Shown here in pieces: positions 40,390-59,727 of a stretch of 64,000 nucleotides of DNA. The DNA comes from a virus. The stretch is taken from the IMG/VR virus record IMGVR_UViG_3300025117_000028, positions 59,916-123,915 of that record; one strand, 5' to 3'. Position 1 is the first letter of the stretch. Every line of letters starts with the position of its first letter. A model generated the notes under the pieces. That model did not search any database, was not told the DNA's origin, and worked only from the letters and a program-made list of their open reading frames with translations. A program made the translations under genes and the position numbers.

Positions 40390-40735
40390 TTTTTACCTCA
40401 ACTATGTTATACTCAAAATTTATAATGTAATTTCGATTTAGCAAATATGATTGATTGTAATTCTCTCCATAAACAAATAAATAATATTGTCTTTCACTAA
40501 AGAACCATTTTATAAAATTTCTCATTTCATTGTTTTCAGTAGGTTTCTTTGAAGGATCCCAAGGTCGAATATTCCATATAGCAGAAGATCTTGGCCAACC
40601 TTCTTTAAAGTTTATTTTTAAAACTAAATCATAGATTTTGGGTTTGGGGACATCCTCTATTTGATTCTTTTTAGACTTTTCCTCTGTTGATTCTTTGCAT
40701 TCACAAGGTTTTTGTTTCTTGAAAAACCATTTCAT
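40382..40735 (-). CDS. Hypothetical protein
   Basis: 117 aa, ATGA-coupled. Confidence 0.5.
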   Translation of the reverse strand: MKWFFKKQKPCECKESTEEKSKKNQIEDVPKPKIYDLVLKINFKEGWPRSSAIWNIRPWDPSKKPTENNEMRNFIKWFFSERQYYLFVYGENYNQSYLLNRNYIINFEYNIVEVKNG

Positions 40736-41094
40736 AGTATCTCCGTGTTTATATTAAAAAGATTTTTTAATGTTTCGAAATCAAAAGGTTGTACATACCG
40801 TACATAATAGGTGTATATATCTTTAGAATCGCAACCAAGATCTCCACATTCAAGGCTTACAAGTTCAATGTAATCGATATTGTGATTGGGATGAGGTGTC
40901 GAAGACCAGAACCAACTCTCTGTAAATCCCCAAACTTTATCAAAAAACGCTTGTTGTAGCTCTTCACTTGTTGGAAGTCTCCAGTTGTCTTTTTCTAAGT
41001 CTTTGGCTTGAAACCAAGTCATTGGTTTTTGGGTTGGTCCCCAAATTAATCTTCTTTGGAAGTCAATTGTAAGGCCATTGATTACTTTAAACAT
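40732..41094 (-). CDS. DUF1566/Lcl-C (C-type lectin-like) protein, copy A
   Basis: ID...LIWG...MTW..A...WRLPTSEEL...FWSS...YVRYV. Confidence 0.8.
   Translation of the reverse strand: MFKVINGLTIDFQRRLIWGPTQKPMTWFQAKDLEKDNWRLPTSEELQQAFFDKVWGFTESWFWSSTPHPNHNIDYIELVSLECGDLGCDSKDIYTYYVRYVQPFDFETLKNLFNINTEIL
41004..41094 (-). repeat. 91-bp perfect direct repeat shared by Lcl copies A and G (second copy 59637-59727)
   Basis: Base-by-base identity of the 5' ends of the two genes. Confidence 0.9.
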
Positions 41095-41096
41095 AT

Positions 41097-41471
41097 TTAT
41101 TTGTCCTGATTATGATGTCTTCTTCTCTTATCGATAAGACCTGTCATTTCTTGTAAAATGCCAGAGACGGGGACATATCTTAATCCACTAATAATTTTTT
41201 CTAATTTACTTATATAAGAAGAAGAAGCATTATAATAATATACTTTACCTTTAAACTTTATATCTTTAATAGCTTGTGCAACTTGTATTAAACCTTTTAG
41301 TTTTTCATGTTTTATAAAACTAAGGAATATATATTTATAAGTATCCCCGTTTAGATATATTTCATCTAATATCCCTTCAACGGTTTTATAAGATTTTATC
41401 CAATCAAAAGGTAATACTTTTTTGTAGTTGTTAACCATTTCATCGTTATCATCATAAACTAAAATTTTCAT
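41097..41471 (-). CDS. Receiver-domain-like protein
   Basis: MKILVYDDN N-terminus with alternating beta/alpha pattern; no clear phospho-acceptor Asp. Confidence 0.4.
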   Translation of the reverse strand: MKILVYDDNDEMVNNYKKVLPFDWIKSYKTVEGILDEIYLNGDTYKYIFLSFIKHEKLKGLIQVAQAIKDIKFKGKVYYYNASSSYISKLEKIISGLRYVPVSGILQEMTGLIDKRRRHHNQDK

Positions 41472-41860
41472 AGTTGTTGTCCGTTAGAGTTTATACCATT
41501 TAATAAATAAAGAGTCATCTGCTCTGCAGGGTAGTCTTCTTCCTCTAAAAAAATATCTAATAATGTCATATTTGGAGAAAAATAATAAGAATTTTCAAGA
41601 ATACACATTTCGTCTATCTCTTTTTTTTCAGTATGACCTATTTCGAATGACTCTAGAGTCCCTATATAGTTTTTAGTATTTAATATATCTGTAATTTTTA
41701 TAAAATATTGTTCTACAAACTTTAGGTGTTGTATAAGATAAAGGAGAATCATCCCTTTTTGTGGTTCTAGATTATTAACCATTGGAAGGTCTGTTATAGA
41801 TATACAGTCTTTATCTTTTTTCCTTGATATCCTTAATGGATTTCTTTTAAAATAAATCAT
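41468..41860 (-). CDS. Hypothetical protein, tandem paralog 1 of 3
   Basis: MIYFKRNPLRI...LPMVNNL...GMILL. Confidence 0.6.
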   Translation of the reverse strand: MIYFKRNPLRISRKKDKDCISITDLPMVNNLEPQKGMILLYLIQHLKFVEQYFIKITDILNTKNYIGTLESFEIGHTEKKEIDEMCILENSYYFSPNMTLLDIFLEEEDYPAEQMTLYLLNGINSNGQQL

Positions 41861-42234
41861 AATTCTTCCTGTGATTCATTAAGTAGATAGACATTCACAT
41901 TTCTTAAACTTGCTATTCCACAAGAAAATATTTCTGTCATTGTCATATTTGAATTATATTGATAAAACATATGGCCAAGACACATTTTACTTACATCAGT
42001 ATGTCTTTCATGTCGTAGACAAGTTTCCCATGTTTCCATTCCACAGGTATATATTGTATGAATTTTAGTGATATATGTTACCCTTCTTACAGATGGGTCA
42101 ATATAATCAATTAAAAGCAACATACCTGTCATAAGTTTTAGATTATTAACAACAGGAAGAGTCGTTATAGGTATACAGTCTGCATTTATCTTTCTTTTGT
42201 ATATTCGTAACGGATTTCTTCTGAAATATATCAT
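41857..42234 (-). CDS. Hypothetical protein, tandem paralog 2 of 3
   Basis: MIYFRRNPLRI...LPVVNNL...GMLLL. Confidence 0.6.
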   Translation of the reverse strand: MIYFRRNPLRIYKRKINADCIPITTLPVVNNLKLMTGMLLLIDYIDPSVRRVTYITKIHTIYTCGMETWETCLRHERHTDVSKMCLGHMFYQYNSNMTMTEIFSCGIASLRNVNVYLLNESQEEL

Positions 42235-42596
42235 AGCTTTTCTATATTTGATAAAAATGGATATAAATAACAGGAGGAAGAAAAAAGAAGCCCTAAACTA
42301 TTTTTAGGATCATAACTACCACAAATATTAACTCCAAATTTTGTGTCTATTATAGACTGGAGAGAAATTTGGTTTCTATTTGTTTCCAAAAGTTGATACA
42401 TATACCTTACAGATATATCTGTCGTCTCTATAATTTTTATTAAATAATAAGTACGCTCTGTATTTTTACAGAAAAGAACCATATTAGCTTGAGGTTTAAT
42501 ATTTGTTATATCTGGTAAAAATCGAAATTCATATAAATCTCCACGATCTGAAGGAAATGTTGTTAAGAGAACTGGATCTTTCTTTATATATAACAT
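42231..42596 (-). CDS. Hypothetical protein, tandem paralog 3 of 3 (divergent)
   Basis: MLYIKKDPVLL...LPDITNI...NMVLF. Confidence 0.5.
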   Translation of the reverse strand: MLYIKKDPVLLTTFPSDRGDLYEFRFLPDITNIKPQANMVLFCKNTERTYYLIKIIETTDISVRYMYQLLETNRNQISLQSIIDTKFGVNICGSYDPKNSLGLLFSSSCYLYPFLSNIEKL

Positions 42597-44839
42597 TAGT
42601 TCCTTTTTAAACTACAGGTGCCTCCCGAGCAAGCTGCTGTGGCTAATTGATCCGTCGAATCTATGACCTCATAGTAAGTTAGTTTTGAAAAATCTATATT
42701 TTTAAGGACTGAAACACGCTTTTCGTATTCCTCTTTACTAATCCTTTCTTTTGGAGCTAAGCGATATATATTGTCGCCATCTTCTTTAGGAAAGAAAGAT
42801 AATCCGCCAACTATATCCCAATTTTCATAAACCCAAGCAGCAACCAACAACCATTCACCTTCTCCTACATATATGGTGCAACTTGGATTATGCTCACAGT
42901 AATTAATTTTAACCATCTTCCAATATTCTAATTGCTCAATAGCTGACAAAGTATTAGAAAATACTTCGGCTCCTTCAGGAGCCCTAACCGGGAATTCTAC
43001 TGACCATATCGTTTCGTCATATTGATAACATGGAACGTTTTGATCTTTTAATAGTTTGAGCATTGGATCGGTATTAGAAATTTGAATTCTATTAATATAG
43101 TAAGGTGCATAATGTGTGTGCATCCCTTCGGAAGCACCTACTACTTTAGATAAAGTGCCCGACGGTTTAATGGCTGTAATAGCAGAAGCAGGATTAATGT
43201 TAAATTGTTTCGCGTAGTAAGTATTAACTTCTATAGTTCTGTCGCGCAAAATCCTTAGAACTTCTGGGTTTCTTACCATAGGACAATCCCATTGCCCAGT
43301 GATAGAAACTCCTAGAAGTCTTTCTTCTTTACAATTTTGTTCCCATTCGGGTGACATATCTGGAAAATAAGTCAATGTAGATTGATATGTCCCAATTAAA
43401 GTAGCAACATCTATTTTATGCAATAAGTTTTCTAGAGTATCATCAAAACGAACTACAATCTCGCTTAAATTACATAAACTATTAGATTGCAATACTATTT
43501 CCCCACAAGGGTTTACCCCTAGACTATTAATTCTTTTACCCAATAATTTAATTCTTCTAGGAGGTAAAGTTTTTCTAAAGGAATAGCGGTTGATAATTCC
43601 CCTCTCTCCCGACCCACTTTTAACTAAGTTTAACCATTCTTCCATAAAGACAGCTTCGCTTGGCTTATCAAATACCGGGTAAGCTACAGAATTATTTGCC
43701 CACATTCTCTGTTTGTTTGTAGACAGCCAATCGCCTGCTTTAGCTAGCCGCATATGTATATCGTCTAGTTCAGAAATGGAAATTAAAGCACTTCTTCGTG
43801 TTGAACCCGCTTCGGTACATTGTCCAATTTTACAGAGAATATCATGTATGTCTATACTCTTTAATCTTGATCCTTGATTGGCCAAAATTCTATTGCGCGC
43901 AAAATTTACTAAGTCTATAAAAGGACGATCTCCAGAAGCACGACCACCCATTGTCTTTAAGGGAGTTCCTACTGGACGAATTTGAGATGTGTCTAAAACA
44001 AAATTTTGTCCATTATATAATAACTCTAATATATAATTAAAACTTTTGACCCAACCTTCTCTTGAATCTTCAACTATAATTACTTCTGGATCTACTCGCT
44101 TTTGATATTTAATTTTTGGAAGATCATGAATAATACTATTCTCAACGGAGAACCCTACTCCTACTCCAAGCATGAGTAAGTTCATGGCCTCTCCGAAGCG
44201 TTGTAGCTCATTGGGAGTGAGATAGGAACAGTTATATGCACAGATATTAGTTCTATCTATTGGGAGTCCGGCTAGCTGAAAATGCCTCATAGAGAACATT
44301 GCTTTTTGTTCTAGTACTGATTCTCTAATTGTGTTGTAAGTAGGCTCGTCTAAAAGACCTCCTAACTGACGTCTCATATAATTAACGCTACGATCTACAG
44401 TCTCTTCGTATACTTCTCTTCTATTATGTTGTGGAAGCCAACGAGCATATGTTCTTGCATAAACAAATTCTCGACGTAAGTCGTGATCAAAATATTGTTT
44501 ATTTCGAATTACTAAATCTCTATATTCTTGAGAAGGAGCATACTTTTTATTCTTTTTTCTTTCCTCTCTATAAAGAATAAAGTTCTTAGCAGTCTTGTGC
44601 ATTTGTAGAGTTAAGAATACATATTCTACAACATCTTGTAACTCTTCTACATGAGGAATGTATTCTAGGTTTTCACTTAATTTTAGTTCAAAAAAATGTG
44701 AAATTTTATTTAGAACATCGTTATATAATCCTTGTTCTTCAATAGCTAAGGCATTTTTTATTGCTTTTTCTAATTTTTCTTCATCGAAAGAGACTGTTGT
44801 CCCGTTTCTTTTAATGATTTGATTTAAAATTTTATTCAT
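42596..44839 (-). CDS. nrdJ: Class II (B12-dependent) ribonucleoside-triphosphate reductase with N-terminal ATP cone
   Basis: IIKRNG..FD..K ATP cone; YARTYAR, AYNCSY, NPCGEI, TAIKPSGT and C-terminal ACSGGTC; no small subunit nearby. Confidence 0.9.
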   Translation of the reverse strand: MNKILNQIIKRNGTTVSFDEEKLEKAIKNALAIEEQGLYNDVLNKISHFFELKLSENLEYIPHVEELQDVVEYVFLTLQMHKTAKNFILYREERKKNKKYAPSQEYRDLVIRNKQYFDHDLRREFVYARTYARWLPQHNRREVYEETVDRSVNYMRRQLGGLLDEPTYNTIRESVLEQKAMFSMRHFQLAGLPIDRTNICAYNCSYLTPNELQRFGEAMNLLMLGVGVGFSVENSIIHDLPKIKYQKRVDPEVIIVEDSREGWVKSFNYILELLYNGQNFVLDTSQIRPVGTPLKTMGGRASGDRPFIDLVNFARNRILANQGSRLKSIDIHDILCKIGQCTEAGSTRRSALISISELDDIHMRLAKAGDWLSTNKQRMWANNSVAYPVFDKPSEAVFMEEWLNLVKSGSGERGIINRYSFRKTLPPRRIKLLGKRINSLGVNPCGEIVLQSNSLCNLSEIVVRFDDTLENLLHKIDVATLIGTYQSTLTYFPDMSPEWEQNCKEERLLGVSITGQWDCPMVRNPEVLRILRDRTIEVNTYYAKQFNINPASAITAIKPSGTLSKVVGASEGMHTHYAPYYINRIQISNTDPMLKLLKDQNVPCYQYDETIWSVEFPVRAPEGAEVFSNTLSAIEQLEYWKMVKINYCEHNPSCTIYVGEGEWLLVAAWVYENWDIVGGLSFFPKEDGDNIYRLAPKERISKEEYEKRVSVLKNIDFSKLTYYEVIDSTDQLATAACSGGTCSLKRN

Positions 44840-44847
44840 AATTACTC

Positions 44848-45201
44848 TTATAAAATTTCTATTGTAAAATTTAATTCTTTTAAAATCAAAGAATCAAGTG
44901 GTTTTACATATCGTACATAGTAGGTAAAACATTCATCCTCGTAGTCGGTATAGCCACTATAGAAAAGTATAACCCGTGAATAACCAGTATAATTAAAGTA
45001 GGGAGATGACGACCAAAAGTAATGTGATATAAATCCAGGAACTTTATCTATACATGCTTGTTTTAATTCATCAATTGTTGGAAGTCTCCAACTGTCTTTT
45101 TCTAAGTCTTTGGCTTTATTCCAGCTTCTTGGTTCTTGGGTTAATCCCCAAACTAATTTATTCTTGAAATCGATTGTAAGACCATTGATTACTTTAAACA
45201 T
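44848..45201 (-). CDS. DUF1566/Lcl-C protein, copy B
   Basis: WRLPTIDEL...FWSSS...YVRYVKPLDSLILKELNF. Confidence 0.8.
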   Translation of the reverse strand: MFKVINGLTIDFKNKLVWGLTQEPRSWNKAKDLEKDSWRLPTIDELKQACIDKVPGFISHYFWSSSPYFNYTGYSRVILFYSGYTDYEDECFTYYVRYVKPLDSLILKELNFTIEIL

Positions 45202-45203
45202 AT

Positions 45204-45659
45204 TTATTTTCCTGTTGAACCAAACCCACCTTTACGTATTTCTTGTTTAATCTCCAAACCTGTTCTTACGATTGGGATCAAAATACCTTGCGCAATACGA
45301 TCAAATATATTCAAAAAAATTGTTTCTTCTGTTGGGTTATAAACTGGGATTAAGATTTCATCTCTATAATCACTATCTATAACACCACTTCCAACAAAGA
45401 CTAACCCTTGTTTAGCTATTGAACTACGCAAACGAACATCTAAAAACATATTAGATGACATTTTTTTGATAAACAATCCGGTTTGCAGCATGACTATTTC
45501 TTTAGGTTTGATTAACAATTGAGAAAGACATTCTTCCCATTCTATTGGGGCAAGAATAATATCAAAAGCTGCAGAACCTGTTGTCGCATAATGGGGCATT
45601 TTTTCTGTAGGATATAATCTATCTTCTGCTACTTTTAATTCAAATATATATTCTGTCAT
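45204..45659 (-). CDS. dut: dUTPase (trimeric)
   Basis: GSAAFD, RSSIA, GVIDSDYR, RIAQ and RKGGFGSTG motifs; start at 45659 by ATGA overlap. Confidence 0.93.
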   Translation of the reverse strand: MTEYIFELKVAEDRLYPTEKMPHYATTGSAAFDIILAPIEWEECLSQLLIKPKEIVMLQTGLFIKKMSSNMFLDVRLRSSIAKQGLVFVGSGVIDSDYRDEILIPVYNPTEETIFLNIFDRIAQGILIPIVRTGLEIKQEIRKGGFGSTGK

Positions 45660-46015
45660 AATACCTCTAAGTTTTTTATAACTCCAAGCACTTCTAAAAT
45701 TGAGGAGTTTAATGGTTGCACATAACGTGTAAGACAATAGTCATCTTTATAGGTGTAATAAGGTATGCCAAAACCGAAATTTACAGTCCATACATAGTCA
45801 GTGAAATTCTCATAAGGTGTCGAAGACCAGAACCAACTCTTTGTAAATCCAAGAACTTCGTCAATAAATGCTTGTTTTAATTCTTCACTTGTCGGAAGTC
45901 TCCAACCGTCTTTTTCTAAGACCTTGGCTTTATCCCAATTCATTGATCCTTGAACTGGTCCCCAAATTAATCTTCTATTAAAGTCAATTGTATAACCATT
46001 GATTTTTTTAAACAT
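45656..46015 (-). CDS. DUF1566/Lcl-C protein, copy C
   Basis: WRLPTSEEL...FWSSTP...VWTVNFGFG...RYVQP. Confidence 0.8.
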   Translation of the reverse strand: MFKKINGYTIDFNRRLIWGPVQGSMNWDKAKVLEKDGWRLPTSEELKQAFIDEVLGFTKSWFWSSTPYENFTDYVWTVNFGFGIPYYTYKDDYCLTRYVQPLNSSILEVLGVIKNLEVL

Positions 46016-46889
46016 TTAACAGGTTCCCTATTGTTAAATATATTTTCGAGAGTTCTTCTTTGATAGAAGTTTCCTCTCTCTTTATAGATAAATTTCCAAA
46101 ATACATTTCTAAACATTCTAATAGTAAATCTTTTATTTTAGATTCATTAGGACTATATTGGAGAGTACTTTCTAAGTATATTTTTTCAAGAGATTTTTCT
46201 TTATCTGCGAACCAATTTTCTAGATATTCTAAAGTCCATTCTCCTCTTCGTATAGCCTTAAGTTGTTCTCTATTTCTTTCTAAATCTATGTCATGCTCTG
46301 ATAAAATTTGTTCAACTTCATTTAATAGTCTTACTACATGATAACCAAACTTTATATCCCAACCATATTGACTGATAAGTTCAGCTCTATTTCCTTCAGG
46401 ATTTTTTGTTTTGATTTTATGTAGCCGAGAATAGGCATAACCCTTAAAGGTATGCCATGCTTTTTTAGATAAGAATAGTTTTCTATTCTCTCGCACTCTT
46501 TGTCCTACTGGTGTTATATGAATAATACATCTTTCAGGAACAAATAATGAATCTATCATATTAGGGTTACAATTCATACATAAATCAAAATAACGAACGA
46601 TATTATAGATATCAATATCATACTCCTTATCTTGATCCTTGATATGATGCTGTTGAAAATTTTGAAATCGCAGAGATTGTGTTCCGAACCCTTGTATTTC
46701 TCCAGCTTCATGAGGGAATATCATAGTACGAGAAGGCAGAGCAAAGCCATATATATCAATATCCGAAGTATTGCTGCTTGCTCCATATGCAGTTGAGCCC
46801 ATAATAACTTCATATTGAACAGACTTATCTATACCATATGGGCAATTAATAAGTTGTTTAGATTGTAATTTAGATATTAAACTTCCCAT
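46008..46889 (-). CDS. Nucleotidyltransferase (RlaP/YcgL-like, Pol-beta superfamily)
   Basis: GSTAYG....SDIDIYG, NPNMIDSL and YAYSRL motifs. Confidence 0.8.
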   Translation of the reverse strand: MGSLISKLQSKQLINCPYGIDKSVQYEVIMGSTAYGASSNTSDIDIYGFALPSRTMIFPHEAGEIQGFGTQSLRFQNFQQHHIKDQDKEYDIDIYNIVRYFDLCMNCNPNMIDSLFVPERCIIHITPVGQRVRENRKLFLSKKAWHTFKGYAYSRLHKIKTKNPEGNRAELISQYGWDIKFGYHVVRLLNEVEQILSEHDIDLERNREQLKAIRRGEWTLEYLENWFADKEKSLEKIYLESTLQYSPNESKIKDLLLECLEMYFGNLSIKREETSIKEELSKIYLTIGNLLNV

Positions 46890-47152
46890 ATATCCTTTTT
46901 TACTTCGAGTTTTTCTTTTTCGCTTAACTCTAATAGTAATTCTTTACTAATTTGATTTACCGGGTATATATATACTGTTCCTGAATAACATTCGATGGTT
47001 ATACACACTTATTCAGAATCTTTAATCGTTCCGCCTTTATCTATATACATTTGACGCAATGTATCTACAATAAGGTTAGTGAATTCTTCAAGATTTTCCT
47101 TTGATGTAATTTTTCCTTTAAATTTATCGATTTTCATTTTAATACCTTTTAC

Positions 47153-47776
47153 TTAAAGTAGTACTGCTGCTAACTTTTGGGTTTCTTTCAGGATTTTCTT
47201 TAGTGCGGTTTCTATGGTTTCTTCTTCTTCTCCGTGATACAATGCAAAATATTCCCAGCCGTCGTCTTTCTTAGCCATAGCAGAGAAGAGTTCAAAACTT
47301 AAAGATGCCTGGCACTTGATATAAGCTTTTAGTTCTTCGTACCCAGCTTGCCAATCCGGCTTGACGTCCGCAGGAAGTTTGAGGCGTTCTGCGTATCTCA
47401 GATACACATGAGCCGGTGGAAAGGTTTTTGTAACTAAAGGTTTTTTATGTAGACACTTCAGGGCATTGTCTATATAATAGTCTTTGCGCCATTTCTTATG
47501 GAGCGCCCTTTCGTAGGGTTCAAGGAGATGGTCTGGCTGCTGGTATGAGAAAAAGTCTCTGCGCGCGACTTTCACATGGCGACGCAGTAATCTTTTAAAG
47601 TTACTAAAAGAAATGTCTTGTACGCCTAAATCTCCTTCTGCTTGTACCATTTCTCCTTGATACCAATAATGCACCCCAGAGTTATCTAGGTAAAACTCAG
47701 ACAATAATTCTATGTGATTTTTTGCAACCAAAGGGTACATATTAGCAAAATAGAGTAGTTGGCGTTTTAGACTCAT
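47153..47776 (-). CDS. Hypothetical protein
   Basis: 207 aa; visibly more G+C than its neighbours. Confidence 0.6.
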   Translation of the reverse strand: MSLKRQLLYFANMYPLVAKNHIELLSEFYLDNSGVHYWYQGEMVQAEGDLGVQDISFSNFKRLLRRHVKVARRDFFSYQQPDHLLEPYERALHKKWRKDYYIDNALKCLHKKPLVTKTFPPAHVYLRYAERLKLPADVKPDWQAGYEELKAYIKCQASLSFELFSAMAKKDDGWEYFALYHGEEEETIETALKKILKETQKLAAVLL

Positions 47777-47794
47777 TTTAATTCCTTATTTTTA

Positions 47795-48097
47795 TTATGG
47801 TCGCACACAACAGATATAACGACTATTATATTTGATGTCACTTCCAATAAAATTGTGCCTTACATAATAATATTGTTTTGACATTCGACATCTAGAAGAT
47901 GACCATAAAGATTTATTTTTTATATACTTTTTAATTTCTTCTGGTCCATTCTCAAATAAATCAATAAGTTCTTCTTTAGAAGGGCATCTTCCTTTTTGTT
48001 CTTCACACTAGATTTGAGTTTTCCTCCATGACATTGACTTTTCAGAGATTGGTCCCCACTTTAATCCGGTCCTAGGATCTTTGATCCATTCATTCAT
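47795..48097 (-). pseudogene. DUF1566/Lcl-C gene with an in-frame amber (copy H), missed by the ORF track
   Basis: MNEWIKDPRTGLKWGPISEKSMSWRKTQI*CEEQKGRCPSKEEL...LWSSS...CVRP*; TAG at 48008-48010; ATG overlaps the UDG stop (ATGA). Confidence 0.75.
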
Positions 48098-48693
48098 TTT
48101 AAATTTTCTGTGTAAAAATTATAAAAAATCTGTGCATGTTCTTTTGCTAAGTCCATCATAGATGGGTTACGTAAAATGTATGCTGGATGCATTAACGGCA
48201 TTACCTTATAAGTTTTACCTTCTAATAAATATTTTTTAACCTTACCACAATATTCTTTTACCCAATTTTGGATAACAGTATCAGTTAATGCTTGATATGT
48301 TGGCTTACCAAAAGTAATAATAAAACGCGGTTTTAATAAATTTATCATATTGTTTAAATGTGTTTTACACACATCATATTCTTCTGGCCGTGGATCTCGA
48401 TCTTTAAATTGACCATTGACCATTGTTCTATGTAGGACTATATTTGTCCAAAATATATCTTTGTGAGGATCTATCCCAATAGATTCGAACATTTCATTTG
48501 CAAATTGACCACTTGGTCCTACGAATGGCAGACCTTGTTTTTGTTCTTGTTCTCCGGGTCCCATACCTATGACCATAATATCGGCCAGATAAGATCCCCG
48601 ATTAACAACTATCTTAGAATTATTAGTATTTAGAGAACAAAGGGTGCAATTTTTTTCTTTAAGTTCTGTGCAATATGTTTCAAGCTGGTTCAT
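48094..48693 (-). CDS. udg: Uracil-DNA glycosylase family 4
   Basis: CTLCSL, GPGEQE, PFVGPSG, RDP..E...C and HPAYILR motifs. Confidence 0.9.
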   Translation of the reverse strand: MNQLETYCTELKEKNCTLCSLNTNNSKIVVNRGSYLADIMVIGMGPGEQEQKQGLPFVGPSGQFANEMFESIGIDPHKDIFWTNIVLHRTMVNGQFKDRDPRPEEYDVCKTHLNNMINLLKPRFIITFGKPTYQALTDTVIQNWVKEYCGKVKKYLLEGKTYKVMPLMHPAYILRNPSMMDLAKEHAQIFYNFYTENLK

Positions 48694-49735: not shown

Positions 49736-49742
49736 ATAATCC

Positions 49743-50480: not shown

Positions 50481-50500
50481 TATAATCTCCTTGCAAAAGT

Positions 50501-51154: not shown

Positions 51155-51167
51155 ATGAACTCCTAAT

Positions 51168-51868: not shown

Positions 51869-52193
51869 AATCTTCTTCTTGGTCAGCTAAATCTTTATCA
51901 TGTTCTTCACAAACATGAAGAATTTTGCCATCCGGAAATTCCCATTTTGCAATTGAAGCTGCTCCACATCTTACTTTATGAGTCGTTTCATTCCAAGGAA
52001 GAACAATCTCCACTTCACAACACGGTAAACTGGTCCTGACGGGTTTACAAGCGCAGTCATGTATTAACTCTCCGCATTTAAAACAAAAGTTTTCGGTATT
52101 GGTATAATATTTATCTTCTTTCTGTTTATGAACAATAGTTCCAGGAGCAGTAGGAATACGAGGTTCAGTGATTTTACGGATAGTCTTTCCCAT
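51858..52193 (-). CDS. Cys-rich Zn-binding protein
   Basis: CFKC..C.C, CCE..C..CEEH. Confidence 0.55.
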   Translation of the reverse strand: MGKTIRKITEPRIPTAPGTIVHKQKEDKYYTNTENFCFKCGELIHDCACKPVRTSLPCCEVEIVLPWNETTHKVRCGAASIAKWEFPDGKILHVCEEHDKDLADQEEDYEG

Positions 52194-52202
52194 TTTTCTC
52201 TC

Positions 52203-52766
52203 TCAGTATTGATTTAGTTTACGTTCTGTTCCATTTAAAATCGCGGCAATATTTAATGCTTTTTGCGCATATTCTAATTTTTTAAGTACATTAGACCAAA
52301 ATTCATATGCAATTTCTATTGCCATAGTTGTTGTCGTTAAAACTGCCACTTCGCTTTTAGCCAACTTTTCGCAATGCGCTCTATTAGTTAAAGCTTTACG
52401 AGAACCATCTTTTCTTTCTACTTGTCTCATAAAAGTTTTATATAATTGCCCTTGTTGGTTGTTTTCTGTAGAACGATTTGCATAAAGCATTGCCTGATAG
52501 CGACTTTTATAGTTTGAAGCTAATTGATATAGCTTAACTAAAGTAGCTACTGCCGTTCTACATTCAGAAATTGACATGTTTGGATCAAAGTGAATAGCAA
52601 AATCTTTTTCCCAATCAACTAATGTTTTTCCATCAATAGTAAAACTATTAAGGAAAATGTCAGTAAATTTAGACAACATAAATTTACCGATGTTAATTTC
52701 TTGGTCTAAATCATTTAATGGTTTTTCCGTATTGATAACTTCTTGTTCAGTGTGTTCTTCTGTCAT
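52203..52766 (-). CDS. Helical coiled-coil hypothetical protein
   Basis: 187 aa, all-alpha pattern. Confidence 0.55.
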   Translation of the reverse strand: MTEEHTEQEVINTEKPLNDLDQEINIGKFMLSKFTDIFLNSFTIDGKTLVDWEKDFAIHFDPNMSISECRTAVATLVKLYQLASNYKSRYQAMLYANRSTENNQQGQLYKTFMRQVERKDGSRKALTNRAHCEKLAKSEVAVLTTTTMAIEIAYEFWSNVLKKLEYAQKALNIAAILNGTERKLNQY

Positions 52767-53302
52767 TTTATTTCTTCTATTATAATTTTTCCGCCAAATG
52801 TTTTAACCATTTTATATAAAATGTCTAAGTCTTCCATAGTTAATTCATTGCTATACATACCTCTTTTTTTATTGTCTGGATATACTGCAATTGTATGCCC
52901 AGATTTTAGTGTTGTTGTAAACATTTTATTTGCCGAAGAACCCGTATGAGTTAAATTAATAATATCTTGGGGTTCTAACTCCAAATTAGGTTTTTCACAC
53001 ATTAACACTGGTTCAGGTATAGAACATGTTTGTCTCAAAAGATTTTCTAAGTTTTGAGTTGTAACATTTTTAGTCCATATAATAATTTCACGGTTCGGAA
53101 GAACGGATTTCCAAATTGTAATAGCTCGTTCTCCGTATAATATGCAATTATATGTATTGCTAAAATTTGTTAAAGTTGTTAATAGATCTTTAGTTTTAAT
53201 ATTAGTGATACTAACAGTATTATAATTATATTCTAAAGAATCTAATTGAGACTGTAATATCTGTAAATCATCAGCAGTTGAGTAAAGAATAATAGGAAGC
53301 AA
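52763..53302 (-). CDS. Hypothetical protein (TTG start)
   Basis: AGGAG upstream. Confidence 0.5.
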   Translation of the reverse strand: MLPIILYSTADDLQILQSQLDSLEYNYNTVSITNIKTKDLLTTLTNFSNTYNCILYGERAITIWKSVLPNREIIIWTKNVTTQNLENLLRQTCSIPEPVLMCEKPNLELEPQDIINLTHTGSSANKMFTTTLKSGHTIAVYPDNKKRGMYSNELTMEDLDILYKMVKTFGGKIIIEEIK

Positions 53303-53795
53303 TCAATTCTCCTTTCATTTCGTAATTATTATTATAAATATATACTTTAGGTAAATGAGCTATAATTTTTAGACTCTCGCTTTCGAAGTCTTTTGTTTTA
53401 CCCAATAGACAATCATATAAGGTTTCCGACTCGCCTAAAAATATATGTAATACTTTTTTGGCGGCCATTAATTCTCTCATCTCCATAAATGGGATAGCTG
53501 CTAAAATTGAAGCTAAAGTTCTATCAACAGTCAATAAAGTTTCATCTTCAATTAGTCTAGGAGGATTGGTGTAGATATTATCATTGATAATGCCTATAAT
53601 TTTCTTGGGTTTGTTTTCAATAATAGAAGCAGTAGTAATATAAATATCTTCTGAAGGATTAACTTCTTTTACTAAACTTAAACTTTCTAGTATGTCGTTA
53701 AAGTAATATATAGTGTCTACATGAGGATTCCATTGTTTGTCTTTTAAATTTTTTCTCATTGAGAGAACTGTTTTGTATAGTAATTTTTGATTCAT
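53271..53795 (-). CDS. Hypothetical protein
   Basis: 174 aa; ATGA overlap with copy D. Confidence 0.55.
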   Translation of the reverse strand: MNQKLLYKTVLSMRKNLKDKQWNPHVDTIYYFNDILESLSLVKEVNPSEDIYITTASIIENKPKKIIGIINDNIYTNPPRLIEDETLLTVDRTLASILAAIPFMEMRELMAAKKVLHIFLGESETLYDCLLGKTKDFESESLKIIAHLPKVYIYNNNYEMKGELIASYYSLLNC

Positions 53796-54145
53796 AAAAT
53801 TTCCATTGTAAAATTTAATTCTTTTAAAATCAAAGAATCAAATGGTCGTATATACCGTGCTGCAAGCCTGTAAGTTTTAAGACCTTCGACAACGTAACCG
53901 TTGTCGAAATCCACGTACCATGCGTGGTCGGCGTTGTCGATAAAGGACGATGACGACCAAAACCTATCCTCTGTAAATCCAGGCACTTTATCAAAAAACG
54001 CTTGTTTTAACTCATCTTTTACCGGAAGTCTCCAACTGTCTTTTTCTAAGTCTTTGGCTTGATTCCAAGTCATTAGTCCTTGGACTGGTCCCCAAATTAA
54101 TTTATTTTTAAAGTCGATTGTAAGGCCATTGATTTCTTTAAACAT
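53792..54145 (-). CDS. DUF1566/Lcl-C protein, copy D (DGR-type variable region)
   Basis: FWSSSSFIDNADHAWYVDFDNGYV; NNC-codon-rich segment. Confidence 0.85.
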   Translation of the reverse strand: MFKEINGLTIDFKNKLIWGPVQGLMTWNQAKDLEKDSWRLPVKDELKQAFFDKVPGFTEDRFWSSSSFIDNADHAWYVDFDNGYVVEGLKTYRLAARYIRPFDSLILKELNFTMEIL

Positions 54146-54152
54146 ATTTATC

Positions 54153-54470
54153 CTAAGGCATTAGATGTATCTTGTCTTGTAAAAACCATAAAGCTAAAGA
54201 TATAAAAATGCCAATATAAGCAGCGGCAACAACAGCGTGAATGCCTCCACCTAGACTAAAAAAAGTTAATATACTAAAAAGTGCGTCAGTAATAATATGA
54301 TGTCTGACCATAAATTTTTGAAGTCTTATTGGAAGTTTATTAAATAAAATTAAGAAAACAAAAAATATTATTCCTCCTAAAATTAAACCCGTTAAGGCTA
54401 TTCCGCCAATTATGAATGTCAAAATAAATAAAGTAATCAAACCTACGACAATTAAATTTTTACTTACCAT
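54153..54470 (-). CDS. Multi-TM membrane protein
   Basis: 3-4 hydrophobic helices. Confidence 0.65.
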   Translation of the reverse strand: MVSKNLIVVGLITLFILTFIIGGIALTGLILGGIIFFVFLILFNKLPIRLQKFMVRHHIITDALFSILTFFSLGGGIHAVVAAAYIGIFISLALWFLQDKIHLMP

Positions 54471-54976
54471 CCAAGAATCTTAGAAAGTGCAGTACGAAGC
54501 ATTATTTGACAAGATAACATTTCTTCAGGCGACATAAAAAATGTTCTAACATTCTCTTCTCCATTTTCTTTATGGCGAAGAGTAAATCCAAAAGATGTTC
54601 CATTAAAGAAAACACTTAGTTGATTAATAACAGATCCCATTGCTTCTGTTTGTGCATTAGGATCATGGATCAAAGCTATTGATTTTCCTTTTTCATCATT
54701 ATCTTGTAAAGCATAAGGCAATGTTTTTTCTAGCCAGTAAAGAATTTTTTCAATATCAATAAATCCTAACTTAAAACGTTGGATTTGTTCTAGTTGCATT
54801 TGATTATTTGCCATTGGGCAAATAGTTAACATTACAGAACCAGCCTGTAATTCTGTACATTTTTGTCCAGCAGAATTTGTCCATTCAGGTCCTTCTTTCG
54901 GTGAATATAACTCTAATTGAAGGCATGAAGTCTTCTTATATTTTTCAAATTTTGCAGGTCGAATAATTTTTTCCAT
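54464..54976 (-). CDS. Hypothetical protein, possibly Whirly/PC4-like ssDNA-binding
   Basis: Duplicated strands-then-helix pattern ending ...LRTALSKILGW; fold inferred by eye only. Confidence 0.35.
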   Translation of the reverse strand: MEKIIRPAKFEKYKKTSCLQLELYSPKEGPEWTNSAGQKCTELQAGSVMLTICPMANNQMQLEQIQRFKLGFIDIEKILYWLEKTLPYALQDNDEKGKSIALIHDPNAQTEAMGSVINQLSVFFNGTSFGFTLRHKENGEENVRTFFMSPEEMLSCQIMLRTALSKILGW

Positions 54977-54984
54977 AATAATCC

Positions 54985-55338
54985 TTATAAAATTTCCATT
55001 GTAAAATTTAATTCTTTTAAAATCAAAGAGTCAAGCGGCCGCACACATCTTACATAATAGTCGAGAGCTTTATTATCATAGTCGGCGAAGCCGTAGCCGA
55101 GATGCACGTACCATGCGTAGTTGGTATACTTAATGAGAGACAACGATGACCAGAACCTATCTTTTGCAAATCCAGGAACTTTATCTATAAATGCTTGTTT
55201 TAATTCATCTCTTGTTGGAAGTCTCCAACCGTCTTTTTCTAAGTTCATGGCTCTACTCCAGCTTCTTGGTTCTTGGGTTAATCCCCAAACTAATTTATTC
55301 TTGAAGTCAATTGTAAAGCCATTGATTTCTTTGAACAT
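54985..55338 (-). CDS. DUF1566/Lcl-C protein, copy E (DGR-type variable region)
   Basis: FWSSLSLIKYTNYAWYVHLGYGFADYDNKALDYYVRCVRP. Confidence 0.85.
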   Translation of the reverse strand: MFKEINGFTIDFKNKLVWGLTQEPRSWSRAMNLEKDGWRLPTRDELKQAFIDKVPGFAKDRFWSSLSLIKYTNYAWYVHLGYGFADYDNKALDYYVRCVRPLDSLILKELNFTMEIL

Positions 55339-55340
55339 AT

Positions 55341-55592
55341 TTAGTCTGTAGTTTGAAGTTTATCTATGAACTTCATTAAGTCTAAAGCTTCTACTAACAG
55401 TAGAGTAGCTAAGTTAGGATGAGAAAGATGATCGAGCATTAGTTGATCAACTTTATCTCCATATTGGATTGGAGATACTGCGTCTCCTAAGGCTGCTATG
55501 ACCTGAGCCAATACTCGTGCTTGATCATTGTCATTTAATGCTGATTGATTAAGAATATTTATTATTTGATTAGCTGTTTCAATTATAGTCAT
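55341..55592 (-). CDS. Hypothetical protein
   Basis: 83 aa, coupled. Confidence 0.5.
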   Translation of the reverse strand: MTIIETANQIINILNQSALNDNDQARVLAQVIAALGDAVSPIQYGDKVDQLMLDHLSHPNLATLLLVEALDLMKFIDKLQTTD

Positions 55593-55951
55593 AATAACCG
55601 TAGTCTAAAATTACATATTTCTTTGCCAAGATCTTCTAAAGAAGTGACAGTATTGAGGATATTAAATAGGTCGGAAAATCCATCGTCTGTATATAAGGGG
55701 GTAACTGTTTTAAGGAAATTAAGGATTTGTAACCTATTCATATGAAATAATCTAAACCAATTTCCTAATTCTAGTAAACTACAATCTTGCGAATAGGATA
55801 TTTCAGAGCGGGGATATTTAGTAGGATCAAGAAAAGCTCTTGTGTCTTCTATAAAGAATCCGCAAAGCTTTCCCTGATCCTCCCAAATTAGGATAGGCCA
55901 TAGATTTTTCTCAAATAGATCTTCGACTAATTGAGTAATATCCATGGCCAT
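55589..55951 (-). CDS. Hypothetical protein
   Basis: 120 aa, coupled. Confidence 0.5.
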   Translation of the reverse strand: MAMDITQLVEDLFEKNLWPILIWEDQGKLCGFFIEDTRAFLDPTKYPRSEISYSQDCSLLELGNWFRLFHMNRLQILNFLKTVTPLYTDDGFSDLFNILNTVTSLEDLGKEICNFRLRLL

Positions 55952-55954
55952 TTT

Positions 55955-56299
55955 TTACCACCTAGGTTTAGTTGAAGTAGTAGTTGCAGGAGTAGTATTC
56001 TCTTGCTGAGTATTAAACTTAGTTAAAATAAAAGTATTTAATGCCTCGCGTTCTTCTTTACCCTTAGGGAAAGCTCCTTCTTGGGTGAATTTGCCTGATT
56101 TATCCTTCATGATATTCCCTTCCTTGTCCCTTTCAACGGGCCAGGAAACCCAAGTCTTATCATCTTTCTTAAAGATTGCGAATTTTACTGTGATTAAATC
56201 ACAGAAAGTAATCATTCCTGCTCCAGCCAACACACCACTATTGATATTCCGTAGTGTAAAGTTTGTAACAGCACTTTCAATCTTTGTCTTTACGTCCAT
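55955..56299 (-). CDS. spoVG: SpoVG-like nucleic-acid-binding protein
   Basis: A.GMITF..ITV..FAIF...WVSWP..R...G.F...FP..KE.RE.L..FIL matches the SpoVG pattern; AGGAG RBS at the 56299 start. Confidence 0.6.
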   Translation of the reverse strand: MDVKTKIESAVTNFTLRNINSGVLAGAGMITFCDLITVKFAIFKKDDKTWVSWPVERDKEGNIMKDKSGKFTQEGAFPKGKEEREALNTFILTKFNTQQENTTPATTTSTKPRW

Positions 56300-56309
56300 A
56301 ATCTTTCTC

Positions 56310-57806
56310 CTAAATAATTTTACCATCTTTACATACTAATACTTTTTTCTCACCATTGATGGTAGAACCTAGTATAACTGATCTTTTCCAGATTTTTTCC
56401 ATATATCTCATGACTACTTCACATTCATCAAGTTTTAATTCAAGTCCAAATTCTTGAAAATCTTGATGGTTTTCATGAGCTAAAATTAAAGCTCCAGAAT
56501 CTGCAACTCCTTGTATTGTGATTCTGGGAACACCATAATCGTAGGACATAGCAGATTGTTCAAAGCAGAAATCTTCAATACTCCTATTCTTGAGAATAAC
56601 TTCCCCTGTTTCGTTATCTCTTTGCATTGTACATAAATGTAACTTGTACATAAGTTTGTCAGTTAAGTAAGTTCTATAAAAAGATGGATCGTCTTCGAAT
56701 TTAACTACTTCTAGAACTTTATCCCATCCTTTAATAGTTGCTTTAACAATGTTTCCATCTTCGTCTCGAAACCTTTGGTTGTCATCTTGTGGATAAGGAT
56801 ATAATTTCATATCTTTAGGAAGGCCATTGGTATAATAGTCGTCCCATCTTTCCCAGATGTCTCTAAGAATTTTATATCCTATATAATATGGGTTATGCCC
56901 CATACGTCCAATCATGTGTTCTTCATCCCATCCCGGATTGATGACAGCAGAATTTAATGCGGCAAAATCAACCATATCCATATCGTTTAAGTACTTTTCC
57001 ATAATTACGATATGAACAAGACTTGCAAATCCTTCATTAATAGTTTTAGTTAAGAATTGAGGATAGAAATAATAACTTTCTGCTCTCACTGTTAAGAGTA
57101 CATCTTTTTGCCATTCTTCTAGATCAGGTGCGTAATGCGCAAGAAACCATAATAAATCAGGTTCTTTTCTTGGAGGAAATGTTTCGTAATTCCAAGAGAC
57201 TTTACTTGTTACTTGAGGGCTTTCTTGTGTTAATAAGTCAATGATATCGGGTTCCGTATAACTAATTGTCCTTTCCTTCTTGGGATATAGTGGTCTATTC
57301 TCGCCTTTTTGGGTATATGTAAACCAATCCAAATGACGCTCAAGAGCAAATGCCATAGTGATAAAGTCTTCTACTTCTTTCTCTCCATACATTTCTTTAT
57401 AACGCTCTACGCGCAAACAAGAATCAGCAGCTCTTTGTACCATATCTTTAGGTACTTTAGATAATTGAATATTGTTTTTAAAAACATGTGCATGACCCAT
57501 GCAATGGGCAATAATTAACTTATTAGTAACTAAATTGTTACTCGCATGCATAAAGGCATAAGTGGGGTTATTATTAATAATGGTTTCTAACGCTACCATA
57601 CCATATTCGCTAGCGGCTTTTTGTTGTGTCCATGTAGGAGCATAGGAGAAATGACGCATACGTAGGGGTAGCCCATAGGTTGCGATAATCGCCATTAATT
57701 TTGGAGGAACTGTTTCCCAAATAATAGGATCCCAAGACAATCCCATTTCGTGTGCTATTTCACTAATGGCTTTTACTTCTTCGTCGATGTGTCCTTCAAC
57801 GAGCAT
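56310..57806 (-). CDS. spoVR: SpoVR/YcgB family protein
   Basis: YGLP.R..HFS, E.IIN..P.YA, LIIAHCMGHAHVFKNN, TKTINEGFAS and NPY..G motifs. Confidence 0.92.
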   Translation of the reverse strand: MLVEGHIDEEVKAISEIAHEMGLSWDPIIWETVPPKLMAIIATYGLPLRMRHFSYAPTWTQQKAASEYGMVALETIINNNPTYAFMHASNNLVTNKLIIAHCMGHAHVFKNNIQLSKVPKDMVQRAADSCLRVERYKEMYGEKEVEDFITMAFALERHLDWFTYTQKGENRPLYPKKERTISYTEPDIIDLLTQESPQVTSKVSWNYETFPPRKEPDLLWFLAHYAPDLEEWQKDVLLTVRAESYYFYPQFLTKTINEGFASLVHIVIMEKYLNDMDMVDFAALNSAVINPGWDEEHMIGRMGHNPYYIGYKILRDIWERWDDYYTNGLPKDMKLYPYPQDDNQRFRDEDGNIVKATIKGWDKVLEVVKFEDDPSFYRTYLTDKLMYKLHLCTMQRDNETGEVILKNRSIEDFCFEQSAMSYDYGVPRITIQGVADSGALILAHENHQDFQEFGLELKLDECEVVMRYMEKIWKRSVILGSTINGEKKVLVCKDGKII

Positions 57807-57807
57807 C

Positions 57808-59010
57808 TTATTTCTCCTTTTTCGTTGTCCCAAAGAAGAACTGTAAGGTTTTATCTACATCTTCCTTGCCATTAATTAAAATAGCCTGGAATTTTTCATC
57901 AGTAATTTTGTTTCTAAGTAAGGAATATAATTCAGACCCTGAATTTGAGCTTACTTCCCATTGAAGTCCATAATTTCCCCATCCTAGATGTGGGTTTATC
58001 TCTCCATAACCAATCATAGAACATTTAGTTAATAACTTATCCACAAGTTTAACGTATAAGCGGTTATCATCGTCTCCCCAATTTCCACCGTCAGTTAAAT
58101 GTACTATATAATTATTACATTTTGAAGGAGGGTGATGTTTGTCTATATGTTCGTCGGCTAATTTCAAAGCACTAGAACAAATAGTTCCTCCTCCCCAAGA
58201 TACTTCAAAGAATTTCTTTTCTTCCTCAAACCAAGCTTGAGTATCGTGCGCAATAAAATATATATCTACTTTTTTATAATTATATTTGAGGAATTGGACT
58301 ATCCAGAAAAAGATCATTTTTGCAACGACACGAATTTCTTCAGTCATAGAACCACTGACATCCATTAATAAATAGACAGCTGCATGAGTAGTATATTGAG
58401 GAATTTCTTCATAAGAAATTTTTACTAAATCTTCTTGTTTAAAATCTCCTACATATGCCTTTCCTGTCTCTGCTGCATTACGAATGATATTTCTTAAAAT
58501 AGTTTCTTCAATATCAGCGTTTGATATTGTATCAGTTGGCCTATAGGTGTTGTACTTTGTTTCAATAGACTCTACTGTCCTTTGCTCTTTTTCTCGTAAA
58601 TTAGGAAGCCCTAACTGTCGAATCATTTCTTCGATAATGTCTTGTAAGTCAATCTCTACAGTATAAGTTGGATCTCCATGTTCATTGCCTGCTTGTGGAC
58701 CTTGTCCTTGACTAAAGGGGTCTCCAGGTTTAAGGACATCTCCTTCTTCTCCTAAAGCTTCTCCACTCGTATCAGAATAATCTGGTTGTGGTGTATCTTT
58801 GTTGGTACCCCAAATAAAACGCCTTTGTTTAATAGTCGGGATACGTACTTTAACTTTTTTGCCAGCACTATCAGATGTAATAATATCTTCAGAGTTAATA
58901 ATATCTTTCGCGCCGGATTTAATCGCTTCTTTTACACGTTCGGTATGTTTTCGCTCTTCCATATCAGTCTGGTTATTTAAATCCCAGATGTCATAGATGC
59001 TATCGCTCAT
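57808..59010 (-). CDS. yeaH: YeaH/YhbH (DUF444) vWA-domain protein
   Basis: LGLPNL.EK, LMDVSGSM, GGTICSSAL, HLTDGGNW.DDN motifs. Confidence 0.92.
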   Translation of the reverse strand: MSDSIYDIWDLNNQTDMEERKHTERVKEAIKSGAKDIINSEDIITSDSAGKKVKVRIPTIKQRRFIWGTNKDTPQPDYSDTSGEALGEEGDVLKPGDPFSQGQGPQAGNEHGDPTYTVEIDLQDIIEEMIRQLGLPNLREKEQRTVESIETKYNTYRPTDTISNADIEETILRNIIRNAAETGKAYVGDFKQEDLVKISYEEIPQYTTHAAVYLLMDVSGSMTEEIRVVAKMIFFWIVQFLKYNYKKVDIYFIAHDTQAWFEEEKKFFEVSWGGGTICSSALKLADEHIDKHHPPSKCNNYIVHLTDGGNWGDDDNRLYVKLVDKLLTKCSMIGYGEINPHLGWGNYGLQWEVSSNSGSELYSLLRNKITDEKFQAILINGKEDVDKTLQFFFGTTKKEK

Positions 59011-59375
59011 AGTTCCTCACGATTAAACCCAAGTTCTAACAGTGTGTAAGAATCGAATGGTCGTATATAACATACAAAAAGAGGTCTCTCTTTTTCTTCG
59101 TTATAAATATTACCGTCAGTTAATCTTATACACCAAGCATAGTCACCAAATTGATTACCTATGCTGTAAGCTGAATTTGTCCAGTAATAATCTTTGATAA
59201 ATCCTGGAGCTTCAAGTTCCCATATTCGTTTTAGTTGTTTAGCTGTTGGTAATGTCCATTCATATTGTTCTTGTCTTAAGGCTGTCCACCAACTCATTTT
59301 AATAGACTCTAATTTCCAAATTTGTTTTCTTTCGGTGTCGATTACGAAATTTTCAATTTGTTGGAATATACTCAT
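59007..59375 (-). CDS. DUF1566/Lcl-C protein, copy F (divergent scaffold)
   Basis: IDTERKQIW...MSW...WTLPT..QL...YYWT...AWCIRLTDG...VCYIRPFD. Confidence 0.75.
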   Translation of the reverse strand: MSIFQQIENFVIDTERKQIWKLESIKMSWWTALRQEQYEWTLPTAKQLKRIWELEAPGFIKDYYWTNSAYSIGNQFGDYAWCIRLTDGNIYNEEKERPLFVCYIRPFDSYTLLELGFNREEL

Positions 59376-59727
59376 AACTTTTCCATTATAATTCCAAATT
59401 CTTTTAAAATCAAAGAGTCAAGTGGTCTCACACGCCGCACGTAGAAGATGGAGGACCTATATCATAATAGGCATCGCCATAGAAGAGGGACACGCTCCAC
59501 ACATAGCTTTGAAGGTAGTAGGTGTAGAGAGATGAAGACCAGAAGCGAGCACTTTTAAATCCAGGAACTTTATCTATAAATGCTTGTCTTAACTCATCTT
59601 TTGTCGGCAATCTCCAACCGTCTTTTTCTAAGTTCATGGCTTGAAACCAAGTCATTGGTTTTTGGGTTGGTCCCCAAATTAATCTTCTTTGGAAGTCAAT
59701 TGTAAGGCCATTGATTACTTTAAACAT
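59372..59727 (-). pseudogene. DUF1566/Lcl-C gene, copy G, with a 1-nt deletion in the variable region
   Basis: The ORF ends early at 59428; the alternative frame gives FYVRRVRPLDSLILKEFGIIMEKL* ending at 59372 with an ATGA overlap on the next gene. Confidence 0.8.

Follow-up and report, generated by a model that had tools for sequence, protein, structure and literature searches.

The window analysed here, 64,000 nucleotides long, comprises bases 59916-123915 of the 190,284-bp viral contig IMGVR_UViG_3300025117_000028, and carries a dispersed family of small genes, all on the minus strand (Table 1). An initial annotation, made from the sequence alone, had counted about 11 of them, assigned them to the DUF1566 (Lcl_C) family of C-type-lectin-like proteins, and proposed that they behave like a multi-target diversification system, of the kind driven by a diversity-generating retroelement (DGR). 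All the listed copies were found in place, and for the window a number of about 11 is correct. A search with the Pfam model PF07603 (Lcl_C, DUF1566; gathering score 34.9 bits) matched seven window copies, four over the cut-off (37.4-48.5 bits) and three below it with E ≤5e-5. The family is larger genome-wide, with 18 Pfam matches (12 over the cut-off), about 20 copies when a family hidden Markov model (HMM) is combined with the Pfam model, and about 24 with fragments and distant candidates. Three members of the initial list, at 25432, 49743 and 50124, are supported neither by Pfam nor by hhalign. In the ESM Atlas, 49743 had a feature score of 0.95 to viral Lcl_C clusters and its model a TM score of 0.6 to DUF1566 clusters, and 25432 had values of 0.94 and 0.59 to small viral Lcl_C clusters. 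Structure prediction for copy 54985 with AlphaFold2 (pLDDT 93.6, pTM 0.85) gave a C-type-lectin-like fold, and Foldseek against the PDB returned snaclecs and the Legionella Lcl-C domain 8q4e (E 6e-5 to 1.5e-4, TM 0.62-0.65). We conclude that the family genes encode DUF1566/Lcl_C proteins with a C-type-lectin fold.

Two subfamilies were distinguished. The eight A-type copies, namely the window copies and one at genome position 136007, are made of an N-terminal scaffold (MFK.INGLTIDF...WRLPT..EL.QAF.DKVPGF), a variable segment running from FWSS to (Y/C)V(R/K)P and, in most copies, the shared tail LDSLILKELNFTMEIL. The B-type, about twelve copies or fragments, occupies genome positions 134-153 kb and includes the window pseudogene 47795; these genes begin with MTCKILEKLQELCQECEH... 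and stop right after ...ARCVRP. A phage tRNA-Ile (anticodon TAT; 8707-8780 of the genome segment L007, minus strand) lies in an ORF-poor 1-kb region between B-type copies. Inspection of the N-termini by eye revealed no hydrophobic leader or signal peptide, in keeping with the small, leaderless proteins first described. A-type relatives with the same kind of tail are found on other phage contigs, one of them again adjoining a dUTPase gene; the tail thus belongs to the proteins of a family long resident in phages. Protein P0021 (117 aa, same tail type), which adjoins dUTPase on another contig, is a relative of copy 45656 in syntenic position in a related phage. Compared by eye, the A-type tail had no convincing homology to the B-type 3′ flank. 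A locus search with the A-type alignment found a single relative, the 306-kb jumbo-phage contig IMGVR_UViG_3300035665_000001, where ten Lcl_C domains are clustered at 217-224.6 kb, some of them fused three per protein; no RVT_1 match was obtained in that record. More generally, small single-domain Lcl_C proteins are common in phages.

Divergence among the A-type genes is concentrated between FWSS and (Y/C)VRP, as had been claimed. For the three gap-free copies included in the test (44848, 53792 and 54985), pairwise nucleotide identity was 0.83 in the scaffold (nt 1-183), 0.56 from FWSS to RP (nt 184-303), falling to 0.49 in the core (codons 66-94), with the tail at 0.96. Comparing the number of differences within the 87-nt core with that in the rest of the gene gave Fisher p values of 4.6e-4 to 1.1e-12. 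The A-type scaffolds themselves differ by about 20%, equally at all three codon positions. The first 90 nt are the same in copies 40732 and 59372-59727, which differ beyond that point, and this identical N-terminal block, together with the mosaic pattern, indicates that the paralogs have exchanged sequence by gene conversion.

Table 1. Positions of the lectin-fold genes, their decayed variable regions (VR) and neighbouring features in the window
Feature	Position	Strand	Evidence
Distant candidate, 129 aa	25432..25821	-	hhalign 4%; no Pfam match
A-type Lcl_C copy, 120 aa, intact	40732..41094	-	Lcl_C E 3.1e-6, 27.9 bits, below cut-off
A-type Lcl_C copy, 117 aa, intact; VR largely ameliorated	44848..45201	-	Lcl_C 37.4 bits
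dUTPase gene	45204-45737
A-type Lcl_C copy, 119 aa, directly upstream of dUTPase	45656..46015	-	Lcl_C 38.5 bits
B-type pseudogene, in-frame TAG, ends ...CCVRP-stop	47795..48097	-	Own-family HMM E 0.018
Distant candidate, 123 aa	49743..50114	-	No Pfam match; hhalign probability 2.5%
Distant candidate, 118 aa	50124..50480	-	No Lcl_C match; hhalign 1.5%; only the (Y/W)RLPT..E motif in common
A-type Lcl_C copy, 117 aa	53792..54145	-	Lcl_C 38.7 bits
VR of copy 53792, decayed DGR-type	53843..53962	-	GC3 excess and skeleton match
A-type Lcl_C copy, 117 aa, top Pfam score in the window, the copy modelled	54985..55338	-	Lcl_C 48.5 bits
VR of copy 54985, decayed DGR-type	55036..55155	-	GC3 excess and skeleton match
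Divergent A-type copy, 122 aa, intact, AT-rich VR	59007..59375	-	Lcl_C E 5.3e-5, 23.9 bits
A-type copy, frameshifted in its VR by a 1-nt deletion	59372..59727	-	Lcl_C E 1.4e-6, below cut-off
Retron-type reverse transcriptase, the only one of the genome	61743..62528	-	RVT_1 54.8 bits

The cleanest footprint of DGR activity was found outside the window, in B-type copies that we call fresh. Those at genome positions 143641, 145305 and 152424 can be aligned over 129 nt with no gap, and copy 146086 fits with one indel. In the first three, 33 of the 35 variable columns fall at codon positions 1-2, and only 10 of the 94 invariant columns are adenines. Their VRs have a GC content of 0.55-0.57 in a 33%-GC genome, and a GC content at third codon positions (GC3) of 0.85-0.88, compared to 0.25 in long phage genes. 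Within copy 152424, GC3 is 0.85 in the VR versus 0.23 in its own scaffold (p=6e-11); since this scaffold is a native, AT-rich B-type one (82-83% DNA identity to paralog 141546), the VR alone has been replaced. The fresh skeleton reads TTC TGG TCG TCG TCG TCC ... GCG CGT TGT GTG CGG CCG stop, with NNC/NNT codons between these ends. Its last six codons, adenine-free, G/C-rich and ending in CGG CCG before the stop, are kept in the VRs of the phage and of the metagenome-assembled genome (MAG) described below. A flank of about 25 nt after the stop is conserved in five B copies; folding of the sequence 3′ of the VRs gave no conserved hairpin, with z-scores that were not significant except one at -2.5. 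The template repeat (TR) of an unrelated phage DGR, organised as Avd-TR-reverse transcriptase (RT), translates to HWSS..NNAWNVNFNNGN.NNNNKNNNN.VRP, i.e. the same AW.V.F..G....K.....VR frame, which agrees with the DUF1566/CLec2 class of DGR targets, category 'd' (Wu et al. 2017, PMC5758913). The variable segment is thus homologous to the canonical VR of this target class, as initially suspected. Variability of the template-adenine type is seen in 3-4 copies outside the window, partly in 53792 and 54985, and not in the other five window copies. This clean footprint, carried by copies outside the window, points to a GC-rich template outside the phage. GC-rich islands (0.43-0.55; 9200-10400, 11800-12800 and 13400-14000 of segment L007) surround the fresh VR genes at about 142.7-147.5 kb of this 33%-GC phage, and one Logan contig (run X10) joins across copy 143641 and its neighbour, a weak hint of presence/absence variation. 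In run X12 the islands had low or no coverage.

A template of 120 nt (38 A, 82 non-A) was then inferred without using any A-type copy, and the non-A skeleton was compared with the VRs. Three fresh B copies match it at 96-100%, 53792 and 54985 at 76%, 44848 and 45656 at 57-59%, and the A-type copy at genome position 136007 at 34%; random genome windows give 22 +/- 5%. Mismatches in the decayed copies are nearly all GC to AT changes: 18 versus a single AT to GC change in copy 53792, 16:2 in a further example, and 30 of 35 in copy 44848 (57% match). Composition separates the same two copies from the rest. GC3 is 0.60 in the VR of 54985 versus 0.28 in its scaffold (p=0.0018), and 0.53 versus 0.31 in 53792 (p=0.039). 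Copy 40732 has no compositional trace of a DGR (0.31 in the scaffold, 0.29 in the VR), nor has 59007 (0.24 and 0.21), and the VR of pseudogene 47795 is fully AT-rich (GC 0.29). In the broken copy 59372-59727, the ORF at 59428-59727 ends after 99 aa, the tail being encoded in a different frame. Given the GC3 excess in 54985 and 53792 and its lack in the other five, the window would hold two half-decayed VRs and five that are, judging from composition, fully ameliorated. For calibration, genuine DUF1566 VRs from unrelated phages were compared with the inferred skeleton and matched it at 68-74%, so that the 76% of 53792 and 54985 means a DGR-type origin, and not by itself the same template. The end motifs, TCG TCA TCG TCC in 53792 and TGT GTG CGG CCG in 54985 (the same final four VR codons as in the fresh copies), point to the same template lineage for both.

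We looked for the machinery in the phage genome itself. CheckV estimates the record to be 84% complete, yet two independent contigs, one of 190,340 bp, bridge the last gene to the first with 1 extra base between them, which means that the genome is closed and that nothing relevant is hidden in a missing part. No self-BLAST pair in the closed genome had a single-base mismatch bias above 0.60, as a template repeat would; a fuzzy genome search for the skeleton ends (up to 3 mismatches) matched VRs only, and no Avd (PF05635) match was obtained. The single RT of the genome was examined as a possible DGR enzyme and excluded: its best PADLOC models are the retron RT_II-A and RT_III-A types, the NCBIfam retron St85 model gives 97 bits, motif 4 is QGSPASP rather than the DGR-type ..SQ, and the active site is YVDN. 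This RT, of about 250 aa, has YVDN in place of YxDD, is directly preceded by a structured non-coding region of about 280 nt (window 61743-62810 for the whole, minus strand), and its stop overlaps the prkA start. We conclude that the phage carries orphan DGR variable regions, the DGR-clade RT, the TR and Avd being all absent from its closed genome. The initial proposal was thus right in kind as to a link with DGRs, and wrong as to a working multi-target diversification system in this genome: besides the lack of machinery, the VRs are 100% identical in other assemblies, and only two of the seven window copies bear a trace.

That invariance was seen in consensus contigs, where minor variants are invisible. 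The phage recurs across many Rifle-type groundwater metagenome assemblies, and the exact protein of copy 53792 is present on 23 contigs. VRs are identical across at least eight assemblies, and the window from 43.8 to 64 kb, including every VR, is 100% identical in several independent ones, down to the frameshift of copy 59372-59727 and the sequence of pseudogene 47795. Polymorphic sites in other assemblies are few and scattered. The VRs of the B region are unchanged in ten loci; the sole clustered difference there affects 17 nt in the scaffold of copy 141546, and reflects either gene conversion between paralogs or chimeric assembly. In one assembly, copy 145305 is put back in frame by a 1-nt insertion. 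No phage VR polymorphism was seen in the Logan contigs mapped. An apparent 14-site variant on copy 143641 (run X13) was rejected, as it was a cross-mapped deltaproteobacterial VR of contig L045 and not a phage polymorphism.

To locate the source of the skeleton, JGI metagenome contigs and GTDB genomes were searched with a degenerate pattern that fits VRs and a TR alike. Apart from contigs of the phage itself, the 123-nt skeleton was found in two 60-61%-GC contigs (L045 and L049) and in the MAG Deltaproteobacteria bacterium RIFOXYA12_FULL_61_11, which has at least ten Lcl_C domains. These bacterial and contig VRs are 94-99% identical to the phage-inferred skeleton at non-A sites, and in the bacterium they end native GC-rich Lcl_C genes with signal peptides or long N-terminal domains. 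The single Avd-like (PF05635) gene of the MAG stands alone, with no TR or RT beside it. In IMG/VR, the framework pattern matched unrelated DUF1566 VRs and one unrelated TR; exact scans for the skeleton 3′ end gave only chance matches in high-GC phages, and a further scan was empty. DNA similarity between the GC-rich region of the phage and the MAG is limited to the ∼123-nt VR, plus one 31-nt match. The latter is spacer 17 of a CRISPR array of the MAG, identical at 30 of 31 positions to phage genome 145665-145695 (E 2e-10). The array has 20 repeats (L064, positions 1818-3110) and adjoins cas1 on a 34.8-kb, 59%-GC contig. Thus two independent lines, the shared VR skeleton and the CRISPR spacer, tie the phage to this Deltaproteobacterium, which we regard as a candidate host despite a 28-point difference in GC content.

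The reading that we favour, and hold to be probable, is that the phage carries frozen, mostly fossil DGR VRs, written from a template outside the phage and then decaying. The phage has a multigene family of small, leaderless, single-domain Lcl_C lectin-fold proteins. Their VRs would have been written, not all paralogs at once, from a GC-rich template absent from the phage and mutagenised at its adenines. This template would most likely belong to a DGR of the host lineage (the Rifle Deltaproteobacterium of 61% GC) or to a DGR of some other element in the same host. Two routes of writing are conceivable, retrohoming in trans while the phage infects its host, and recombination with host VR DNA confined to the VR. 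Once written, a VR would freeze and drift towards the AT-rich composition of the phage. The copies would then form a series, from fresh (3-4 B copies outside the window) to half-decayed (53792, 54985) and fully ameliorated (the other window copies), while gene conversion among paralogs would keep scaffolds and tails alike. The proteins are presumed to be ligand binders, intracellular or virion-associated, with frozen, non-renewing specificities; the initial annotation supposed that they might bind host defence proteins. What we infer here is where the template resides, how the VRs were written, and this function. A bolder version, in which the DGR of a host rewrites the lectin genes of a large, lytic-type phage devoid of retroelement, i.e. 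cross-replicon mutagenic retrohoming leaving a dated fossil series, is possible and in our eyes rather doubtful.

Several observations weigh against the external-template reading. Five of the seven window copies lack a compositional footprint (VR GC3 not above scaffold GC3), and for them a DGR origin would be inherited by homology only; the 76% match of 53792 and 54985 is not lineage-specific either, given the values reached by unrelated VRs. The stasis rests on consensus contigs, which cannot show minor variants, and the protein variants P0001 and P0002 differ from window copies only in the VR, at 3 changes out of 3 (two of them being the residues by which P0002 differs from copy 44848). This is suggestive, with too few changes to count, and rare ongoing change is possible. 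The tie to the host is slender: a single spacer, mismatched at one position, whose target is in a GC-rich phage island, with the binning of the MAG taken to be right. For a 33%-GC phage, a host of 61% GC would be unusual. Finally, a TR-specific pattern found nothing over the metagenome contigs and the general scans found VRs only, the fragmentary MAG shows no RT, and among 40 relatives of the MAG that were searched neither VR nor TR was found.

How do other explanations fare? A self-contained, working phage DGR diversifying about 11 targets would account for the VR framework and NNC codon bias of 53792 and 54985, for an RT gene within the window, and for P0001 and P0002 differing in the VR at all three positions. 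Nevertheless, with a closed genome lacking TR and Avd, an RT of retron type (QGSPASP, YVDN), VRs identical across assemblies and no footprint in five of seven window VRs, it is very improbable. Hardly any credit can be given to the idea that the variable segments are written by the retron-type RT (61743-62528) and the structured RNA upstream of it, acting as a diversifier of a non-canonical kind. It is indeed the sole RT of the genome and lies within 2 kb of two copies, but the region upstream of it has no similarity to any VR by self-BLAST, its motif 4 is of retron type and its catalytic motif is YVDN, and the GC-rich skeleton is shared with bacterial genes.

The phage lineage might once have had its own DGR cassette, of the same template lineage as that of the Deltaproteobacterium through horizontal sharing, and have lost it of late, all the VRs being relics of writing in cis. 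DGR cassettes are mobile and often phage-borne (PMC5758913), and according to the fossil series writing ended at more than one time. We find this unlikely, as a skeleton GC3 of 0.85-0.88 fits a 61%-GC genome and not a 33%-GC phage, no cassette-bearing relative was found in the IMG/VR or metagenome scans, and the other jumbo phage with Lcl_C arrays is also devoid of RT. Or else these are ordinary paralogs: a Lcl_C gene, perhaps from a DGR-bearing bacterium, was duplicated, its loop diverged by point mutation and diversifying selection, the flanks were gene-converted, and no DGR ever acted on the window copies. In five of these copies VR and scaffold have the same composition, gene conversion is evident, scaffold differences are even over codon positions, and small single-domain Lcl_C proteins are common in phages. 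Such a history leaves unexplained the fresh copies, where AT-rich native scaffolds carry GC-rich VRs identical at all non-A sites, as well as the GC3 excess and GC to AT-only decay of 53792 and 54985, and we consider it quite improbable.

The genes surrounding the window copies include RNR, dUTPase, RlaP, UDG, RecA, a phosphoesterase, SpoVR/DUF444/PrkA, the small RT and ThiF/JAB. Judging by this gene content, the neighbourhood is a replication or early-type module and not a tail module, and the initial remark that these genes are unlike the tail-fibre target of a classic phage DGR stands, placed as they are among DNA-metabolism genes. The phage-encoded trio of PrkA, DUF444 (YeaH-like) and SpoVR spans window 56310-61798 (minus strand), with distant PrkA homologues in Thermus and jumbo phages. 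Adjoining ThiF-family (E1-like) and JAB-like genes at 62811-63982 (minus strand) are a possible ubiquitin-like conjugation/deconjugation pair. Between 41468 and 42596 (minus strand), three tandem paralogous small ORFs of 121-130 aa have the N-terminal motif M(I/L)YF(K/R)RNPLRI in common. Rfam at gathering thresholds over the window returned no family, and PHROGs gave only weak matches of unknown function. Among GenBank phages, tblastn with copy 54985 had no match and no cultured relative was found, PrkA matching only distant Thermus and jumbo phages. The GC content of the genome is 31-39%. In related strains, other genes are inserted upstream of the first gene of the genome, between a capsid-module gene and a 452-aa gene; examples are a 289-aa gene and a 474-aa Laminin_G_3 protein, and the site looks like a variable hotspot of the structural module.

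DGRs are usually described as self-contained cassettes, and those of phages as tail-fibre diversifiers. Here is a phage without a cassette that has about 20 DGR-type targets, non-structural and apparently cytoplasmic, and whose template skeleton is shared with a bacterium carrying a CRISPR spacer against it. The graded decay series is a natural time course of the fate of VRs once writing stops. If writing in trans is true, hypermutation machinery would be exploitable across replicons, and common VR skeletons would be usable as a new kind of phage-host link. Small stand-alone Lcl_C proteins, common in phage metagenomes, are also brought forward as a binder class worth functional study.

The closest known systems are the category 'd' DGR targets (DUF1566/DUF823/Fib_succ_major, CLec2), such as LdtA of Legionella pneumophila (Wu et al. 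2017, PMC5758913). They belong to the same Pfam family and have their VR at or near the C-terminus, in the frame FWSS...AW.V.F..G....K....(Y/A)(V/R)RCVRP; about half of them are short DUF1566-only proteins (PMC5758913). However, LdtA and the homologues in the MAG are secreted or are lipoproteins, and their genes lie next to or close to a TR-RT cassette, whereas the phage copies are leaderless, about 20 in number, and without TR or RT in the genome. The A-type copies have moreover an extra 17-residue tail after the VR, unlike the LdtA class. The C-terminal domain of Legionella Lcl (PDB 8q4e) resembles the predicted fold of copy 54985 (TM 0.65, 21% identity), but Lcl is a large collagen-like adhesin, neither a DGR target nor a 117-aa stand-alone protein. 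For one template serving many dispersed targets, the likeness is with Treponema denticola, whose DGR has seven non-adjacent targets; other DGRs with remote targets are known, and Avd, TR and RT are able to work in trans, as cited from plasmid experiments (PMC5758913). In those DGRs, targets and cassette are in one genome, while in the present case a phage carries the targets and another replicon apparently carries the template; it has been argued that remote targets are not expected for phage-associated DGRs (PMC5758913). Bordetella phage BPP-1 (mtd-avd-TR-brt) also has a phage-encoded variable protein of C-type-lectin fold, with adenine-site variation at codon positions 1-2, but it has one tail-fibre target and a complete cassette in cis, compared to small non-structural proteins among DNA-metabolism genes and no cassette in the present phage. 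What sets the present family apart from these known cases is its scale, its decay series, and the sharing of a template between phage and host.

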